Assembly: GCA_028710985.1 (NCBI GenBank)
Contig: JAQTTB010000001.1
Coordinates: forward strand, 359,397 to 423,396
Source: Patescibacteria group bacterium
GTDB lineage: Bacteria > Patescibacteriota > Patescibacteriia > JAHJFT01
Direction of reading: 5' to 3'
Length of the DNA stretch: 64,000 nucleotides
This document shows positions 12,965 through 52,403 of the stretch, one piece after another. Every line of letters starts with the position of its first letter. Positions within the stretch are counted from its first letter, which is position 1. The position numbers and the translations under genes are program-made. The notes beneath the pieces were generated by a model, which saw only the letters and a program-made list of their open reading frames with translations, made no database searches and was not told the DNA's origin.

Positions 12965-12982
12965 AGCGGGCGACCGGAATCC
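12965..12982 (-). repeat. partial copy of the tRNA-Gly 3' end (T-loop through acceptor: agcgggcgaccggaatcc)
   Basis: Identical to 13076-13093 of the intact tRNA-Gly up to the T-loop. It lies 100 nt downstream of the gene. Confidence 0.7.
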
Positions 12983-13024
12983 CTGCCTTCGCCCCTCGAT
13001 AAGCTCGGGGCTACGGCAGGCAGG
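12982..13024. repeat. palindrome-family variant: CCTGCC + 27-nt internal segment + GGCAGGCAGG
   Basis: cctgcc-ttcgcccctcgataagctcggggctac-ggcaggcagg. The termini equal the arms of the 20-nt palindrome. Confidence 0.55.
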
Positions 13025-13075
13025 AAACCGGCATTCTATTTCGAGGATCCCGATCGGGTTGTTTAAAAAATTATC

Positions 13076-13147
13076 AGCGGGCGACCGGAATCGAACCGGC
13101 ATCTTCAGCTTGGAAGGCTAACATAATAGCCATTATACGACGCCCGC
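13076..13147 (-). tRNA. tRNA-Gly (anticodon TCC)
   Basis: Manual fold: GCGGGCG acceptor, anticodon loop CTTCCAA, T-arm GCCGG-TTCGATT-CCGGT, discriminator U, no encoded CCA. Leader and trailer form an extended inverted repeat (aaaaaattatca / tgataatttttt and ttcgaggatccc / gggatcctcgaa). Confidence 0.85.
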
Positions 13148-13222
13148 TGATAATTTTTTAAGGACTCTTACGGGCGGGATCCTCGAAAATTCAACCTCGC
13201 TTCGCTTCGGGAATTTTCGGGA

Positions 13223-13248
13223 GAAGGCTAACGTAATAGCCATTATAC
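13223..13248 (-). repeat. partial copy of tRNA-Gly positions about 10-35 (D-arm to anticodon loop), joined directly to the 20-nt palindrome
   Basis: gaaggctaacgtaatagccattatac matches 13113-13138 with 1 mismatch. The copy ends within the anticodon loop. Confidence 0.7.
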
Positions 13249-13267
13249 CTGCCTGCCGGCAGGCAGG
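13248..13267. repeat. 20-nt perfect palindrome CCTGCCTGCCGGCAGGCAGG
   Basis: Exact self-complementary 20-mer. Confidence 0.9.
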
Positions 13268-13279
13268 CGACACTCGCGA

Positions 13280-14277: not shown

Positions 14278-14340
14278 TGGTCGGGGATGAGAGACTCGAA
14301 CTCTCGACCTTCCCGACCCAACGTCGGGACGCGCTACGAA
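14278..14340 (-). pseudogene. tRNA-Pro-derived fragment (D-stem 3' strand through CCA) with the anticodon arm replaced by a GTCCCGAC-GTTGG-GTCGGGA hairpin; no 5' acceptor strand
   Basis: TAGCGCG...AGGTCGAGAGTTCGAGTCTCTCATCCCCGACCA is identical to the intact tRNA-Pro. Upstream sequence cannot pair with the acceptor 3' strand. Confidence 0.7.
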
Positions 14341-14354
14341 TTATTTATTACAGA

Positions 14355-14395
14355 TGGTCGGGGCGGTGAGATTTGAACTCACGATCTCATGCTCC
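14355..14395 (-). pseudogene. 3' half of a split tRNA-Pro: GGA-GCATG-AGATC-GTGAG-TTCAAAT-CTCAC-CGCCCCG-A-CCA
   Basis: Pairs perfectly with the 5' half at 14510-14544 (see findings). Confidence 0.75.
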
Positions 14396-14509
14396 CCCGC
14401 CTGCCGTCGCCTTGGTCGGGGATGAGAGACTCGAACTCTCGACCTCCTGCTCCCAAAGCAGGCGCGCTACCAACTGCGCTAATCCCCGGCTCAGGCCATG
14501 GCGGGCAGG
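14396..14509 (-). mobile_element. 114-nt insertion splitting a tRNA-Pro in its anticodon loop; it carries a complete tRNA-Pro(TGG) and ends in CCCGCCTGCC...GGCGGGCAGG
   Basis: Boundaries defined by where the two tRNA halves stop pairing. Mobility is inferred. Confidence 0.45.
14413..14488 (-). tRNA. tRNA-Pro (anticodon TGG), CCA encoded
   Basis: CGGGGAT-TA-GCGC-AGTTGGTA-GCGC-G-CCTGC-TTTGGGA-GCAGG-AGGTC-GAGAG-TTCGAGT-CTCTC-ATCCCCG-A-CCA. C1:G72 and A73 are Pro identity elements. Confidence 0.9.
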
Positions 14510-14544
14510 CAAAGCATGCGCCTTAGCCGCTAGGCCACGCCCCG
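14510..14544 (-). pseudogene. 5' half of the split tRNA-Pro: CGGGGCG-TG-GCCT-AGCGGCTA-AGGC-G-CATGC-TTTG
   Basis: Acceptor, D-arm and anticodon-stem 5' strand. Complements 14355-14395. Confidence 0.75.
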
Positions 14545-14674: not shown

Positions 14675-14746
14675 ATGCCTGGGGACAGAATTGAACTGTC
14701 GACACGTGGATTTTCAGTCCACTGCTCTACCACTGAGCTACCCAGG
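14675..14746 (-). tRNA. tRNA-Phe (anticodon GAA)
   Basis: GCCTGGG-TA-GCTC-AGTGGTA-GAGC-A-GTGGA-CTGAAAA-TCCAC-GTGTC-GACAG-TTCAATT-CTGTC-CCCAGGC-A. Confidence 0.9.
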
Positions 14747-14767
14747 CCCAGGGCTTTATAAAATTGA

Positions 14768-14844
14768 TGGTGGGCGCACGTGGACTCGAACCACGGACCT
14801 CGTCATTATCAGTGACGCGCTCTAACCAGCTGAGCTATGCGCCC
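14768..14844 (-). tRNA. tRNA-Ile (anticodon GAT), CCA encoded
   Basis: GGGCGCA-TA-GCTC-AGCTGGTTA-GAGC-G-CGTCA-CTGATAA-TGACG-AGGTC-CGTGG-TTCGAGT-CCACG-TGCGCCC-A-CCA. This is the classic tRNA that follows 16S in rrn operons. Confidence 0.9.
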
Positions 14845-15092
14845 AATATGTCATGGCTGATTCTTGCTTGTAAAAAGCGCCTCCCAAATCCGGTCTTAAA
14901 ATATTTTTCTCGCTTAAGGGCAAGTTCTTTGCTCAGGCAGGCTTCATAATATACCAGTTTCAATGGACGGCGTATTCGCGTTGAGTCCACTTTGCCCAAC
15001 GCATGCTCTTGGCAGCGTTTTTTTAAATCATCCGTAAAACCGATATAAAATTTCTTATCTTTTAAACTTAATAAAACGTAGGTAAAAAACAT
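14835..15092 (-). CDS. GIY-YIG nuclease family protein (85 aa)
   Basis: YVLLSLKDKKFYIGFTDDLKKRCQEH matches the GIY-YIG motif. Its 3' end overlaps the tRNA-Ile 5' end by about 10 nt. Confidence 0.7.
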   Translation of the reverse strand: MFFTYVLLSLKDKKFYIGFTDDLKKRCQEHALGKVDSTRIRRPLKLVYYEACLSKELALKREKYFKTGFGRRFLQARISHDILGA

Positions 15093-15107
15093 TATTCGCG
15101 AGTCCTC

Positions 15108-15488
15108 CTATGCACCCTTGGTTTCCAGGGTGACATTGATATTGGATGGATTGAATTTGTCCTGTATGTATTCTTTGATTTTATTCGGAGTATCCGAGCT
15201 GCCGCAGGTCAGAATGTCGATTGAGCAGTAGCCGTATTCTGGCCAGGTATAAATCGCGGCGTGGGATTCTTCCAGTATCGCGACTGCCGAGACCCCCTGG
15301 TGTTTAGTCAGCTCGCCGTTGAAAATTTTGTGATGGTAGTCAACAAAATTTACCAAATGTAAGCCGGCTTTGCTTATGGCAGATGTCAGAGTTTCTTTGA
15401 TTAGATTTCGGTCATTGAGCAATTGTTCGTTGACCCCATAGAACTCGGCGTAAAGATGATAGAGCCGAGGCGTATAGAGTTGTTCCAT
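15108..15488 (-). CDS. speH: S-adenosylmethionine decarboxylase proenzyme (class 1b, pyruvoyl)
   Basis: The self-cleavage motif ILEESHAAIYTWPEYGY is present. Size is about 126 aa. Confidence 0.85.
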   Translation of the reverse strand: MEQLYTPRLYHLYAEFYGVNEQLLNDRNLIKETLTSAISKAGLHLVNFVDYHHKIFNGELTKHQGVSAVAILEESHAAIYTWPEYGYCSIDILTCGSSDTPNKIKEYIQDKFNPSNINVTLETKGA

Positions 15489-15677
15489 TTCTTTATCCTC
15501 AATATTGGCGCGGCGGAAAGGCCCGTCAATATAAAAAAGACTATAAATTATGTAGCTACAGTATATTAATTTTCTGTAAGGATCGCAAGAGACTTTGTCC
15601 CTGTGGATACATAATTTAAAGCCTTCTCAACTTAGAAAGTGATAGGATTTCCTTCTTTGGGATATTTACTCCCTAGA

Positions 15678-17175
<1,498 letters not shown>

Positions 17176-23195: not shown

Positions 23196-23240
23196 TTTAA
23201 AATTGAATTAAAATTTAAAACTTAAAATTTAAAATTAAAA
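23196..23240. repeat. AT-rich 41-bp unit tttaaaattgaattaaaatt|taaaacttaaaatttaaaatt: the 'empty site' version of 36106-36170
   Basis: The same unit at 36106-36170 carries the 20-nt palindrome exactly at the marked junction. Confidence 0.8.
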
Positions 23241-24431: not shown

Positions 24432-24941
24432 TTACGCCTTTGGCTCCTCGGCGGGTGCTTCTGCCGGGGCCGGAGTTTCTGCCGGAGCGGGCGTTTCTGC
24501 AGCCGGAGTCGGAGTTTCCGGTACTGGTGCCGGGGTCTCTGCCGGAGCGGGCGGTTCGGGTTCCGGAGTCCCGACCGCTGTCGGGACTGCCGCGGCGGCG
24601 GCGGCTTCAGCCTTGGCTTTATCGGCTTCAGCCTTGGTTTTGGCTTCGGCAATTCGGGCGCGGCGCCGGTCCGATACTTTAACGCTCTTGCGTTTTTTGC
24701 CGGAAATAATTCCCTGGCTCACGAGCAAATTGTGCACCGTGTTTGAAGTCTGGGCGCCCCGCTCAATGTAATATTTGATGCGTTCAATATTGAAATTAAT
24801 GACTTTTTCTTTGGCGCGGGGATTATAGTTTCCCAGATTTTCAAGAACCCGGCCCCAGGGATCGCGGCTTTTTTCCGAAATAACCAGGCGGTAGGTCGGC
24901 TGTTTTACCTTGCCAACTCGCGCAAGTCGGATATGAAGCAT
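24432..24941 (-). CDS. rpsP: 30S ribosomal protein S16 with an Ala/Pro/Glu-rich C-terminal extension
   Basis: MLHIRLARVGKVKQPTYRLVISE... is a typical bS16 N-terminus. Confidence 0.9.
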   Translation of the reverse strand: MLHIRLARVGKVKQPTYRLVISEKSRDPWGRVLENLGNYNPRAKEKVINFNIERIKYYIERGAQTSNTVHNLLVSQGIISGKKRKSVKVSDRRRARIAEAKTKAEADKAKAEAAAAAAVPTAVGTPEPEPPAPAETPAPVPETPTPAAETPAPAETPAPAEAPAEEPKA

Positions 24942-25017: not shown

Positions 25018-27261
25018 TCAAGCCTTGGCCGCGGCTTCCTCGAGCTTCACGGAAAGCATTTTTGAAACCCCGTCATCGCCCATGGTGACGCCGTAAAGAA
25101 CGCGCGCCACGTCCATGGTCGCGCGGTTATGCGAGATCACGATGAACTGGGTCTTCTTTGAAAGCTCATCAATGATTTTTGAGAATTTTATTGAGTTGGA
25201 CTCATCCAGCGCGGCGTCAACCTCGTCTAAGACGATAAACGGCGACGGATTGTTGGTCATTATCGCGCAAATCAGGGCAATCGAAGTAAGCGCGCGCTCG
25301 CCGCCGGAGAGCGCGTTGATGGATTTCAGGCGCTTGCCCGGGGGAGTGGCCTGAATCTCCACGCCGGTGATGATTTTTTTCTTGGCCGCGGGCTTTTCCT
25401 CAAACGGCATTTCTTCGGGCGCCTCTTCCCCGACGTTCCGCTCCGCGGAAGTCGGGGCCTCGGCCTCTTCCGGCTCCTCGTCGGTTATTTCTTCATTCAC
25501 CTGGATAAGTCGCGCTTCGCCGCCGCCGAATAGGAGTTTAAAATATTTTTCAAATTCGCGGTTCAGGTTGCGGAACGCGCTTTCGCTCTGGGCTTTTATT
25601 TTTTGGTCAAGCTCGCCGATGATTTGCTCGAGCGAATCAATCGCTCCGGAGAGATCCTTGGTTTGGCCTTCGAGATATGTAAATCGTTCCTGCGTCTCGT
25701 TGTATTCGGCGAGTGTCTCGGGATCAATCGCGCCGATGAGGTCAAGCTGATGTTTGAGCCGCGCCATCTCCGGATAGATCGCTTCGGGTGAAACCGATTC
25801 GGTCGGCACGTAAGATTTCATTTCTTCGGCGCGCTCGGCCAGATCCTGCCGCATTTCCTGTTCAAGCGATTCTCGTTTTGTCTCAAAGCGGGCTTGTTCT
25901 ATCTTCACGTCGTTCAGCCGCGACTCCAGATCGTGCACGCGTACGCCTTTTTCCTGCAGTTCGCGCTGAATGGAAAAAAATCGGCCGCGTTTTGCCTCTT
26001 CGTCTTTATTGAAATTGGTAATTTTTTGCTGGACCGCGGAAATTTTGTTGTCAATCGCAATGAGTCCCTTGGCAATCTCTTTTAGATCTTTTTCCATGCC
26101 CGGGTCGAGCGCCATCGCCTGGTCAGGCTGTTTTAGTTTGGCGAGCAGGTCTTTGATTTTTTTTGCCAGGGTCCGGATTTTTTCCGGCGCATCTCCGCCT
26201 GCTTCAATCGCGCGCATCGCCTCTTCGCCCAGGGCGTCAATCTCTTCAAGTTCGGACAGGATCATGGCCACGGGCACGGGCGGCGCCTTTTTTTCCTTGA
26301 GGCTCGCGAGTTCGATTTTTCTCTGCAGATCAAACTGCTTTTCGCGCAGAGCGGATTTCTCGTTCATGAGCTGCTGGTAGTCGTTCTGCAGGCCGGAGAA
26401 CACGTCGCCCCGCGGCTCTTCGCGCTCCATTTTGGAAAATTCGGACTGCAGGGTCTCAAGCCGGCTTTTGGCGTCAATGAGTTCCTCGTCAATCACTTTG
26501 TAATTCCGTTCCTGGATTACGATTTTTTCGGAAATATCTTTCCATAATGTGCCGTAATATTTTTTCTGGAGTTCGCCGAGCTCGGCCTCGGTTTCTTCGC
26601 GCCGTTCCAGCCTTTTCGCGAGCCGGGTGAGCGAGCGGAGCCGCGGCTCGATTTCCTGCATCACAAGCAATGCCTGGTTCAGATTTTCGCGGCTTGCTTC
26701 AAGTTTATTAACCGACGACTGTCTTTTTATTTGATATTGTTTGACCCCGGCCGCTTCATCAAAAAATTCTTTGCGCTCCTGCGGGGTAGCGACCAGGATA
26801 TGATCAACCATGCCCTGGCCGATGACCGCGTAGCTCCGCTGGCCGAAGTTTGCCTGCGCGAGCAAGAGCTGGATGTCCTGGAGACGCGCCTTGTTGTTGT
26901 TGAGGTAGTATTCGGTCACGCCGTCGCGGTAGAGCCGCCGCGTGATCACGAGTTCGGAATAATCAATATCCGCGGCGCGGTCTTCGTTATTGAGATACAG
27001 CGAAACCTCGGCAAAGCCGGCGCGGCTGCGCTTCGGCGTGCCCGAAAAAATCACGTCTTCGCTTTTCTTGCCGCGAAGAAGCTTGAGGCTCTGCTCGCCC
27101 ATTGCCCAGCGCACCGCGTCCGCGATGTTGGATTTGCCCGAGCCGTTCGGCCCGACAATCGCGGTGGTGCCCTTTTTGTCGCCGGCGGGCGCTAGGAATT
27201 CCAGGGTGGTTTTGAGCGCAAAGGTTTTAAAGCCTTGGAGCTCCAGTCTCTCTAAAAACAT
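25018..27261 (-). CDS. smc: SMC-family chromosome-segregation ATPase (short form, 747 aa)
   Basis: N-terminal Walker A GPNGSGKSN, C-terminal signature LSGGE and Walker B VLDEVDAALD, and long coiled coils. Confidence 0.8.
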   Translation of the reverse strand: MFLERLELQGFKTFALKTTLEFLAPAGDKKGTTAIVGPNGSGKSNIADAVRWAMGEQSLKLLRGKKSEDVIFSGTPKRSRAGFAEVSLYLNNEDRAADIDYSELVITRRLYRDGVTEYYLNNNKARLQDIQLLLAQANFGQRSYAVIGQGMVDHILVATPQERKEFFDEAAGVKQYQIKRQSSVNKLEASRENLNQALLVMQEIEPRLRSLTRLAKRLERREETEAELGELQKKYYGTLWKDISEKIVIQERNYKVIDEELIDAKSRLETLQSEFSKMEREEPRGDVFSGLQNDYQQLMNEKSALREKQFDLQRKIELASLKEKKAPPVPVAMILSELEEIDALGEEAMRAIEAGGDAPEKIRTLAKKIKDLLAKLKQPDQAMALDPGMEKDLKEIAKGLIAIDNKISAVQQKITNFNKDEEAKRGRFFSIQRELQEKGVRVHDLESRLNDVKIEQARFETKRESLEQEMRQDLAERAEEMKSYVPTESVSPEAIYPEMARLKHQLDLIGAIDPETLAEYNETQERFTYLEGQTKDLSGAIDSLEQIIGELDQKIKAQSESAFRNLNREFEKYFKLLFGGGEARLIQVNEEITDEEPEEAEAPTSAERNVGEEAPEEMPFEEKPAAKKKIITGVEIQATPPGKRLKSINALSGGERALTSIALICAIMTNNPSPFIVLDEVDAALDESNSIKFSKIIDELSKKTQFIVISHNRATMDVARVLYGVTMGDDGVSKMLSVKLEEAAAKA

Positions 27262-36105: not shown

Positions 36106-36170
36106 TAAATTTAAAATTGAATTAAAATTCCTGCCTGCCGGCAGGCAGGTAAAACTTAAAATTTAAAATT
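36106..36170. repeat. AT-rich 41-bp unit (as at 23196-23240) carrying the 20-nt palindrome at 36130-36149: the 'filled site'
   Basis: tttaaaattgaattaaaatt-CCTGCCTGCCGGCAGGCAGG-taaaacttaaaatttaaaatt. Confidence 0.85.
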
Positions 36171-36181
36171 GCCCGAAGGGC

Positions 36182-36232
36182 TGGTAGCCCGTAGGGGAAT
36201 CGCCCCGACGTTTCGCTTCGCGAAAGTCGGGG
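36182..36232 (-). repeat. tRNA-Glu 3'-end copy (T-loop to CCA, 36182-36202) fused to a 30-nt hairpin CCCCGACGTTTCGCTTCGCGAAAGTCGGGG (36203-36232)
   Basis: tggtagcccgtaggggaatcg equals the 3' end of the intact tRNA-Glu. The hairpin core is identical (reverse orientation) to 52339-52366. Confidence 0.75.
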
Positions 36233-36353
36233 TACCGGGGCGCGGAGTTTATCTCGATGTATATCGGGACCTCTCGCGCCCGTTCGATTCCCTAAATTTA
36301 ATATTATTAAACATACAAAAAATCTCAGACATTTATCCGCGTCTGAGGTTTCT

Positions 36354-36428
36354 TGGTAGCCCGTAGGGGAATCGAACCCCTATTACCACATTGAAAGCGT
36401 GGTGTCCTAGCCATTAGACGAACGGGCC
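36354..36428 (-). tRNA. tRNA-Glu (anticodon TTC), CCA encoded, followed by its own terminator (36321-36350)
   Basis: GGCCCGT-TC-GTCT-AATGGCTA-GGAC-A-CCACG-CTTTCAA-TGTGG-TAAT-AGGGG-TTCGATT-CCCCT-ACGGGCT-A-CCA. Confidence 0.85.
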
Positions 36429-36510
36429 ATGAAATATGTTTTTAAATATGTTACCACATTGTCCGCCAAAGGCGGATGCGCCTCGCCTGTCCGCCTCTGG
36501 CGGAGGCGCA

Positions 36511-36565
36511 AAAGCGTGGTGTCCCTGCCTACCGGCAGGCAGGCTAGCCATTAGACGAACGGGCC
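36511..36565 (-). repeat. copy of the tRNA-Glu 5' half (positions 1-35, ending in the anticodon loop), interrupted after position 21 by the palindrome (36524-36543)
   Basis: GGCCCGTTCGTCTAATGGCTA-[CCTGCCTGCCGGTAGGCAGG]-GGACACCACGCTTT compared with the intact gene. Confidence 0.8.
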
Positions 36566-52023: not shown

Positions 52024-52142
52024 GCGCCTCCTCCTTTGTAAAAAAACGATTTTTCTCTATCTTACTTCTCGCAAAGTATATTGTCAATGCCTTGAATATT
52101 TGATTTATTTATGCTATTATACGTCAAAACATCCAGGCTCGT

Positions 52143-52214
52143 GCCCCTGTAGTGAAATGGACATCACGGCAGTCTTCGGAACTGCAATTTCAGGTTCGAA
52201 TCCTGGCGGGGGCA
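52143..52214 (+). tRNA. tRNA-Arg (anticodon TCG)
   Basis: GCCCCTG-TA-GTGA-AATGGACA-TCAC-G-GCAGT-CTTCGGA-ACTGC-AATT-TCAGG-TTCGAAT-CCTGG-CGGGGGC-A. Confidence 0.85.
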
Positions 52215-52336
52215 AGAGCGCGGGTGTTTTTTAATATTTTGGGTTCTGCGCCCGAGGCGCACTCGCCTTCGGCGAGGATTCCCTCTGGGCGCATTTTGTA
52301 ATTGACGTGGTTCGCCCCGACGCTTCGGTCGGGGGC

Positions 52337-52403
52337 GTCCCGACTTTCGCGAAGCGAAACGTCGGGACGAATCCTGGCGGGGCAAGAGCGCGGATGTTTT
52401 TTA
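52337..52403 (+). repeat. hairpin GTCCCGACTTTCGCGAAGCGAAACGTCGGGAC (52337-52368) fused to a 35-nt copy of the tRNA-Arg 3' end plus downstream flank (52369-52403, matching 52198-52233)
   Basis: gaatcctggcggggcaagagcgcggatgtttttta versus gaatcctggcgggggcaagagcgcgggtgtttttta. Confidence 0.8.

Follow-up and report, generated by a model that had tools for sequence, protein, structure and literature searches.

We analyzed a window of 64,000 nucleotides (nt) from a Patescibacteria group bacterium (contig JAQTTB010000001.1 of assembly GCA_028710985.1, positions 359,397 to 423,396), in which a perfect palindrome of 20 nt (herein the 20-mer, CCTGCCTGCCGGCAGGCAGG) recurs in an AT-rich spacer and in dead copies of tRNA genes. 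The window is housekeeping DNA; it carries a 16S rRNA gene, rpoB/rpoC-sized open reading frames (ORFs), gyrA, ftsH, SMC, tsaD, and similar genes. Of the six tRNA genes, four (Gly, Glu, Pro, and Arg) adjoin dead pieces of themselves. It also contains the gene for a single-domain GIY-YIG nuclease of 85 residues (14835-15092, minus strand; PF01541 over residues 1-69, E = 2.8e-14), which a preliminary description of the palindrome had missed. The 20-mer is not an orphan element; it is tightly linked to a tRNA-anchored mini GIY-YIG gene.

A pattern search of the window places perfect copies of the 20-mer at 13248-13267 and 36130-36149 and near-copies at 36524-36543 (one mismatch) and 1879-1898 (two mismatches); the preliminary description had located the first three correctly and began the fourth at 1880. 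Against these four copies, 0.01 matches are expected by chance, and four or more were seen in 0 of 100 shuffles. As a single strand, the 20-mer forms a hairpin with an 8-bp stem and a CCGG loop (-8 kcal/mol). The perfect copy at 36130-36149 occupies a filled site in an AT-rich spacer, 32 nt past the 3′ end of an old tRNA-Glu fragment, and its empty counterpart is present as a paralog: the 41-nt AT-rich unit tttaaaattgaattaaaatt plus taaaacttaaaatttaaaatt is continuous at 23196-23236 (plus strand), and at 36110-36170 the 20-mer stands in mid-unit, exactly at the junction that in the empty copy falls between 23215 and 23216. A second comparison is offered by tRNA-Glu. The dead 5′ copy (36451-36565, minus strand; tRNA positions 1 to ∼47) equals the intact tRNA-Glu(UUC) gene (36354-36428, minus strand), which serves as the empty reference, except for two insertions: a 20-mer in the D-arm, which separates positions 22 and 23 where the D-loop meets the D-stem, and a palindromic insert of 49 nt in the anticodon loop (36462-36510; a double TCCGCC...GGCGGA palindrome). 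This 20-mer (36524-36543) is a subfamily variant that reads CCTGCCTACCGG... on the plus strand. The perfect copy at 13248-13267 lies after tRNA position 10 in a dead tRNA-Gly 5′ fragment (13223-13277), near the real gene (13075-13148), a setting that the preliminary description did not list. The variant at 1879-1898 occupies the loop of another hairpin, CCCGAT...ATCGGG (1874-1908).

Six filled/empty pairs, drawn from the window and from other phyla, differ by exactly 20 nt and carry no target duplication (the window; L080; L111; L191; L093 versus L048; L021). Both of the internal controls proposed in the preliminary description, the AT-rich unit and the tRNA-Glu copy, are borne out, and with them its claim of precise insertion without target-site duplication. 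In three of the six pairs, the host is a hairpin resembling the NTS/SRM repeats discussed below (TGTCATTCCCG...CGGGAATCC). Such NTS/SRM-like hairpins, in metagenome-assembled genomes (MAGs) of Thermodesulfovibrionales and Planctomycetales, host the 20-mer at the junction of the loop and the 3′ stem (L093 1720-1790; L048 4776-4851; L021 3490-3560 and 4880-4915).

The 20-mer is not restricted to the four places in the window; the exact string occurs in at least 120 stretches of GTDB contigs (one genome per species) and in 35 stretches of viral contigs. Over the 596 Gb searched, ∼0.5 exact matches would be expected by chance (our own calculation). Hosts among the matches listed include Patescibacteria, Bacteroidota, Omnitrophota, Planctomycetota, Thermodesulfovibrionales, Bdellovibrionales, and others, and the Bacteroidota include cultured Winogradskyella, Flagellimonas, Longitalea, Aquiflexum, Agriterribacter, and Aestuariivivens. 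A literature search found no paper with the 20-mer string. The wider count gives more than 160 non-redundant sites, the flanks of which are unrelated. At 123 sites among the matches listed, the flanking direct repeat is 0 nt long in 69 and 1 nt long in 39; a target-site duplication of fixed length, as in miniature inverted-repeat transposable elements, was found neither at these sites nor in the exact filled/empty pairs. Insertion shows a modest preference for the 3′ side of A on one strand: solo sites have A at -1 or T at +1 in 59% of cases, versus 44% in controls (p = 1e-4). Insertion at the apex of an existing hairpin is ∼3-fold enriched, mostly touching the stem.

The 20-mer also nests in itself, lying within the loop of another copy in L020, L023, and L044 and in a composite in the window (below). 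Asymmetric subfamilies (CCTGCCTACCGG... and CCTGTCTGCCGACAGGCAGG, each with its reverse complement) recur at independent sites in both orientations and therefore reflect repeated insertion at the DNA level, not decay in place or an oriented role in RNA. The number of sites, their unrelated flanks, the self-nesting, and the two-way subfamilies all support the minimal mobile insertion that had been proposed at the outset; the linkage to a GIY-YIG gene removes the part of that proposal that treated it as an orphan. A large autonomous element bounded by the half-sites CCTGCCTGCC...GGCAGGCAGG was also considered, with cargo of up to 4 kb, and rejected, as the search returned only pairs of independent copies or nested copies. 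In one viral contig (L227, 2239-2330), a tRNA-Met cloverleaf that is otherwise intact carries the 20-mer in its variable loop, and ARAGORN calls a tRNA of 92 nt; here the 20-mer may be tolerated as a long extra arm.

The nuclease gene of the window lies between the 16S rRNA gene and tRNA-Ile (14768-14844), with its stop codon within the first 10 nt of the tRNA. Its product is a 100% match to an NCBI Patescibacteria “GIY-YIG nuclease family protein”. GIY-YIG ORFs at other loci encode 77 to 88 residues, and the predicted catalytic residues (Y, Y, G, R, H, and E) do not vary; no extra (C-terminal) DNA-binding domain was found in these ORFs, which consist of the catalytic domain alone. The nearest solved structures are the UPF0213 proteins EF2693 and BH0048 (E ∼1e-12), followed by SLX1, and NCBIfam yields a sub-threshold match to a group I intron endonuclease and nothing else. 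Phage and plasmid collections searched with the nuclease gave only distant UPF0213-type matches. In keeping with the preliminary description, which reported no RAYT or TnpA gene in the window, a Pfam search of its 50 ORFs found no RAYT, TnpA, Y1/HUH, or other transposase domain, only housekeeping genes.

Cassette ORFs end 2 to 10 nt ahead of a tRNA or inside it. In the window, the stop codon (14835-14844) is the TAG of the conserved tRNA motif A-TAG-CTCAG and the ORF overlaps tRNA-Ile by 10 nt; in many other cassettes, the ORF ends 9 to 22 nt within the tRNA. This overlap suggests obligate co-transcription and RNase P processing. The surrounding segment (14676-17174) holds, in succession, 16S rRNA, an S-adenosylmethionine (AdoMet) decarboxylase ORF (15108-15488), the GIY-YIG ORF, tRNA-Ile, and tRNA-Phe; it lacks tRNA-Ala and 23S rRNA and is an unlinked, invaded rRNA operon spacer. 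An ORF of the same family also occurs inside a 23S rRNA gene, without an adjacent 20-mer, in a MAG labeled Saccharibacteria (L095, 4740-5200).

Across several phyla, the cassette has the same order: a tRNA 5′ fragment with the palindrome, the nuclease ORF, and an intact tRNA. A literature search on GIY-YIG together with tRNA, Bacteroidota, or Patescibacteria found no description of it. Among the ∼120 loci listed that had been selected by the 20-mer, there are 10 GIY-YIG ORFs, 6 of which have the 20-mer or a decayed copy of it 18 to 40 nt upstream of the start codon. As a control for selection bias, we picked 80 metagenome loci by similarity of the nuclease protein alone, 77 of which had enough upstream sequence. 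The 20-mer stands upstream of the ORF in 49 of these 77 (64%; 33 perfect copies, 10 with one mismatch, and 6 with two), mostly 12 to 45 nt from the start codon and within a duplicated tRNA 5′ fragment. A tRNA lies no more than 40 nt from the stop codon in 49 of 70 loci; it is mostly tRNA-Leu, with some Arg, Asn, Gly, and Lys. Over the 269 kb of sequence, 67 of the 72 copies of the 20-mer lie within ∼140 nt of an ORF (48 no more than 100 nt upstream and ∼19 no more than 140 nt downstream). The nuclease gene and the 20-mer are thus linked when the loci are chosen without reference to the palindrome.

In the cassettes, an A precedes the palindrome on its 5′ side, and the insertion point usually falls where a loop meets a stem in the dead tRNA copy; of 36 non-redundant cassette sites, 35 have A at -1, typically as the last base of the D-loop. 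Where the intact tRNA is upstream of the ORF, the 20-mer is found downstream, in the T-loop of a 3′ tRNA fragment. Tandem arrays of fragment, 20-mer, and ORF occur in L160, L190, L135, and L197. Identity between the nucleases of different cassettes falls to 43% at the amino acid level while the 20-mer remains perfect. In the window, on our reading, the 20-mers at tRNA-Gly and tRNA-Glu mark cassettes that are now without a nuclease ORF, and those at 36130 and 1879 are solo insertions. The tRNA duplicates that the preliminary description had used as controls do document insertion, but they are not incidental to it; they represent the footprint that the nuclease-tRNA cassette leaves and are the preferred home of the 20-mer. 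Insertion of a whole nuclease-plus-tRNA unit into an older gene was considered as the origin of this layout and rejected as a general rule because only 6 of 46 cassettes have a 3′ tRNA fragment downstream, though such fragments are found at four of the window tRNAs.

The window nuclease itself belongs to a second clade, rich in Patescibacteria, for which at least 1,498 relatives were found at E ≤ 1e-8. In eight of nine independent loci of this window-type clade, the 20-mer is replaced by a sister palindrome, CCCGCCCGCC...GGCGGGCGGG; nuclease clade and palindrome family therefore co-vary. The sister palindrome begins with CC[CT]GCCCGCC, continues with a variable nested hairpin, and ends with GGCG..GCGGGCGGG; compared with the 20-mer, its arms have C in place of T at positions 3 and 7 and are otherwise the same. 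Seven of the eight sister-palindrome loci are linked to a tRNA (His, Lys, or Val), and the position of the palindrome varies, being either in the 5′ tRNA fragment (as at GGTTA^GAGC in L244, for example) or between the stop codon and the tRNA. At the eighth locus (L251), where no tRNA was detected, the sister-palindrome arms lie on either side of the ORF, like terminal inverted repeats. In L238, a HicB/HicA toxin-antitoxin pair (1828-2305) lies directly downstream of the GIY-YIG/tRNA-His cassette.

This sister family is also present in the window. An outer tRNA-Pro (14355-14544) carries in its anticodon loop an insertion of 114 nt (14396-14509, minus strand), and this insertion encloses an intact tRNA-Pro (14413-14488); its removal in silico gives back a canonical tRNA-Pro of 76 nt, and a further tRNA-Pro 3′ copy lies at 14278. 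The insertion reported in the preliminary description is thus real; its assignment as a variant of the 20-mer is not upheld, as its arms (CCTGCCCGCCAT... and ...GGCGACGGCAGGCGGG, the left arm also being written CCTGCCCGCC...) are of the sister type, which goes with the other nuclease clade. The left arm equals that of L238 over 12 nt.

The dead tRNA fragments of the window are packed with GC-rich palindromes of several kinds (the 20-mer, TCCGCC...GGCGGA, CCCGAC...GTCGGG, and CCCGAT...ATCGGG), some of which are mutually nested. The dead tRNA-Gly 3′ fragment (12965-13032, minus strand) carries in its T-loop a composite of 43 nt (12982-13024), a 20-mer with a second hairpin nested inside, which confirms the composite noted earlier and gives its location. 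Intact tRNA-Gly(UCC) (13075-13148, minus strand) lies between the arms of a perfect 14-bp inverted repeat, TTTCGAGGATCCCG / CGGGATCCTCGAAA (13039-13052 and 13175-13188), and a second inverted repeat takes in the acceptor stem; the replacement tRNA-Gly seems to occupy the loop of a long palindrome. The dead tRNA-Glu 3′ fragment (36182-36300, minus strand) has a palindrome-filled T-loop that includes a 30-nt CCCCGAC...GTCGGGG element (36203-36232), and the dead tRNA-Arg 3′ fragment (52309-52384, plus strand; real gene, 52142-52215) has CCCGAC-family palindromes in its T-loop (52315-52334 and 52336-52369). A nested palindrome of 28 nt, CCCGACTTTCGCGAAGCGAAACGTCGGG, is common to the T-loops of these Glu (36203-36232) and Arg (52336-52369) fragments and looks like a second mobile hairpin family that prefers the T-loop.

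Palindromes of the CCCGAC...GTCGGG type also occur within ORFs, at 25429-25456 in the SMC gene (25018-27261) and at 24567-24588 in the C-terminal extension of the S16 ORF (24432-24941), and may represent insertions into genes of the kind known from Rickettsia palindromic elements. Dead 3′ fragments in the window (36233-36300, minus strand) and in L041 (1090-1290) open with their own T-loop, copied in inverse orientation (GGGAATCGAAC ... CGATTCCC), which looks like fold-back repair of a T-loop break. Duplicated tRNA halves break assemblies: the Logan short-read contigs L001 and L002, from the same organism, end inside tRNA-Glu, at a point corresponding to 36392 of the window.

Among described systems, the Ssn nuclease and its SRM hairpins come closest. 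Ssn proteins are single-domain GIY-YIG proteins that form the CDD cd10448 (GIY-YIG_unchar_3) clade; they bind the NTS/SRM hairpin repeat only as single-stranded DNA and cut just 5′ of it, and in the NTS-ssnA-NTS arrangement the repeats flank the gene in the manner of an insertion sequence (IS); descent from an IS-like element has been suggested (Chenal et al., Nat Commun 2025, PMC11893778). Both systems have a tiny single-domain GIY-YIG nuclease without a DNA-binding domain, a GC-rich hairpin repeat directly beside the gene and sometimes on both sides of it, and dispersed copies in the genome, and in both, separate nuclease clades go with separate hairpins. They differ in that the 20-mer is identical between phyla, whereas the Ssn repeat is lineage-specific, and in that the present gene is fused to a tRNA 5′ end with a duplicated tRNA fragment; tRNA is not mentioned in the Ssn paper (PMC11893778).

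The analogy to REP and IS200/IS605 elements drawn in the preliminary description fits less well. REP/BIME-RAYT, IS200/IS605, and their palindrome-only derivatives share with the 20-mer a hairpin-forming unit, the lack of target duplication, and insertion 3′ of a short target on one strand; in both cases, non-autonomous hairpin copies would be moved in trans by one small nuclease gene with the same hairpins on its flanks. The linked enzyme here, however, is a hydrolytic GIY-YIG nuclease, and the 50 window ORFs contain no Y1/HUH enzyme. REPs are also imperfect palindromes, have a conserved head of the GTAG type, and are species-specific, whereas the 20-mer is shorter, perfectly symmetric, and common to several phyla. 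Another comparable system is SegB of phage T4, reported as a free-standing GIY-YIG homing endonuclease in a tRNA gene cluster (PMC2330249). It resembles the present system in having a GIY-YIG gene among tRNA genes, and the cassette layout, the tandem arrays, and the duplicated tRNA 5′ parts fit cleavage of a tRNA gene followed by copying from a donor. SegB-type enzymes differ in having a C-terminal DNA-binding domain, where the present protein is a catalytic domain alone, and neither a duplicated tRNA half nor an associated dispersed palindrome is known from SegB-type systems.

Other short repeats are also comparable. The small dispersed repeats (SDRs) of heterocystous cyanobacteria (Elhai et al. 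2008, Genome Research) are reportedly ∼21 to 27 nt long and mobile-looking; they are said to be mutually nested and inserted in existing hairpins with no target duplication. To our knowledge, no transposase is known for them, and neither a linked nuclease gene nor a tRNA cassette has been described. Their sequences and host phylum differ from those of the 20-mer. The GC clusters of yeast mitochondria and similar organellar palindromic mini-elements are short GC-rich palindromes in AT-rich spacers and occasionally in genes, and their presence varies by site; they are longer than the 20-mer, often duplicate a short stretch of the target, and lack a linked GIY-YIG/tRNA cassette.

On balance, we think the 20-mer is probably the cognate hairpin repeat of an Ssn/UPF0213-like clade of ∼80-residue GIY-YIG proteins, whose genes form selfish cassettes fused to tRNA 5′ ends, and that it is a nuclease-mobilized hairpin. 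By analogy with SsnA, the nuclease would bind the hairpin in single-stranded DNA and cut at its base, during replication, transcription, or cruciform extrusion; the predicted cut just 5′ of the hairpin may be hinted at by the A that directly precedes the palindrome in the cassettes. Such a cut could release or copy the hairpin, and host ligation or repair would seal it into another exposed loop or nick, so that the 20-mer would be a non-autonomous element moved in trans. Cutting of the tRNA D-arm with repair from the cassette would account for the spread of cassettes and for their tandem arrays. The linkage of gene and palindrome is observed directly; catalysis by the protein is predicted. Together, the mini GIY-YIG gene and the 20-mer point to a system among the smallest nuclease-plus-hairpin mobile systems known. 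A bolder statement is one that we would sooner doubt than accept: that the 20-nt perfect palindrome is itself a complete mobile element, the smallest known, which an 80-residue GIY-YIG enzyme would cut and host ligation would seal into single-stranded DNA hairpin loops, while the tRNA-wedged gene would duplicate tRNA 5′ halves, the unchanged hairpin having spread through Patescibacteria, Bacteroidota, Omnitrophota, Planctomycetota, and their viruses.

Several observations weigh against nuclease-driven movement. No palindrome lies directly upstream of the window nuclease, and this protein belongs to the clade that goes with the sister palindrome. About 90% of the copies in the genome scan, among the matches listed, are distant from both a GIY-YIG gene and a tRNA fragment. 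GIY-YIG enzymes hydrolyze DNA without strand transfer, and insertion therefore needs an unproven ligation or repair step. Other palindrome families likewise pile up in dead tRNA fragments, and passive accumulation therefore contributes at least something. The 20-mer also departs from the SRM consensus (HGTCWYN(0-2)YYVSBRHN(0-5)WNVSBRGN(0-2)RNCYNB, oriented 5′ arm; PMC11893778), being a perfect palindrome without a GTC-containing 5′ arm and with random flanks.

In a rival reading, the nuclease is a neighbor rather than the motor. The 20-mer would then be moved by another enzyme or by host repair at hairpin loops and would accumulate in dead tRNA fragments made by the cassettes, these being the only neutral, hairpin-rich DNA of compact genomes. 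Such an account fits the rarity of tRNA-like flanks (12 of 127 sites) and of GIY-YIG ORFs (10 of ∼120 loci) among the matches listed, the copies inside unrelated hairpins, SRM-like repeats, and terminators, the unrelated TCCGCC...GGCGGA and CCCGAC...GTCGGG palindromes that share the tRNA fragments, and the varying point of insertion in the tRNA (D-loop, anticodon arm, variable loop, or T-loop). We nevertheless regard it as unlikely, since the 20-mer precedes the start codon in 64% of the cassettes selected by protein, mostly by 45 nt or less, and nearly all copies there (67 of 72) are near an ORF; furthermore, the palindrome family changes with the nuclease clade, palindrome arms flank the ORF in L251, the 20-mer keeps its identity between nucleases that are only 43% identical, and the 50 window ORFs tested with Pfam include no other candidate enzyme. 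Alternatively, the palindrome might be a cis-acting part of the cassette, kept by selection for its benefit to the cassette, with solo copies arising as by-products of break repair templated on it. As a repeat-breaker, the palindrome would interrupt the direct repeat formed by the tRNA fragment and the intact tRNA and so block recombinational loss of the nuclease gene; as a homing-immunity scar, it would eliminate from the dead tRNA copy the site that the nuclease itself cleaves; it might also be an operator. The palindrome is indeed always in the disrupted tRNA copy, on whichever side of the ORF that copy lies, and within the repeated segment, where it shortens the uninterrupted homology. Repair from the upstream copy, once the intact one has been cleaved, fits the tandem arrays, and free-standing GIY-YIG homing endonucleases such as T4 SegB are reported from tRNA clusters (PMC2330249). 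Yet any insertion would break the repeat, and one particular 20-mer dominates. Solo insertions are precise and lack flanking cassette sequence, so that templated repair is a hard source for them, and the random orientation of the asymmetric subfamilies runs contrary to an oriented operator or RNA role. We judge a cis-acting palindrome improbable, to about the same degree as the neighbor account.

Two further explanations carry much less weight. The 20-mer might act at the RNA level, as a short bacterial tRNA intron or as an extra arm that is spliced out of, or tolerated in, the mature tRNA; its insertions are located in tRNA loops, and the viral tRNA-Met of L227 is otherwise intact with the 20-mer in its variable loop. 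When the 20-mer was deleted in silico at 127 sites among the matches listed and ARAGORN was rerun, however, an intact tRNA was restored at essentially none, and the tRNA-intron reading was rejected. The tRNA hosts of the 20-mer are truncated fragments beside intact copies, and most copies of the 20-mer are outside tRNA and randomly oriented. A role as an RNA hairpin was rejected on the occurrence of asymmetric subfamilies in both orientations relative to the ORF, and a group I/II intron or other known RNA was rejected because Rfam finds no intron family in the window or in 14 cassette loci, only tRNAs and 16S rRNA. Altogether, an RNA-level element is very improbable. We give almost no credence to a chance match or an artifact of sequencing or assembly, such as an adapter or a duplicated locus. 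Short-read assemblies do break here, as seen in L001 and L002, but these same independent contigs show the 36524 copy exactly; the identical 20-mer recurs in MAGs and isolates that come from many studies and were sequenced with many technologies, its position is conserved relative to tRNA structure and to the ORF, and sequence subfamilies exist.

The tRNA fragments have a practical side: besides breaking assemblies, they can mislead tRNA annotation. If the link between the nuclease and the 20-mer is causal, the pair would provide a tractable model for the multiplication of REP-like repeats and would add a defined enzyme and its 20-mer to the toolbox of sequence-specific single-stranded DNA nucleases. 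It would represent a minimal nuclease/hairpin system, in which a mobile unit of 20 nt is matched to a bare catalytic domain and the pair is conserved between very distant phyla. The Ssn family would thereby be extended to a new recognition hairpin and to a new lifestyle, that of cassettes anchored in tRNA genes, and the same causal link would account for the tRNA genes in Patescibacteria and Bacteroidota that are ringed by their own fragments.

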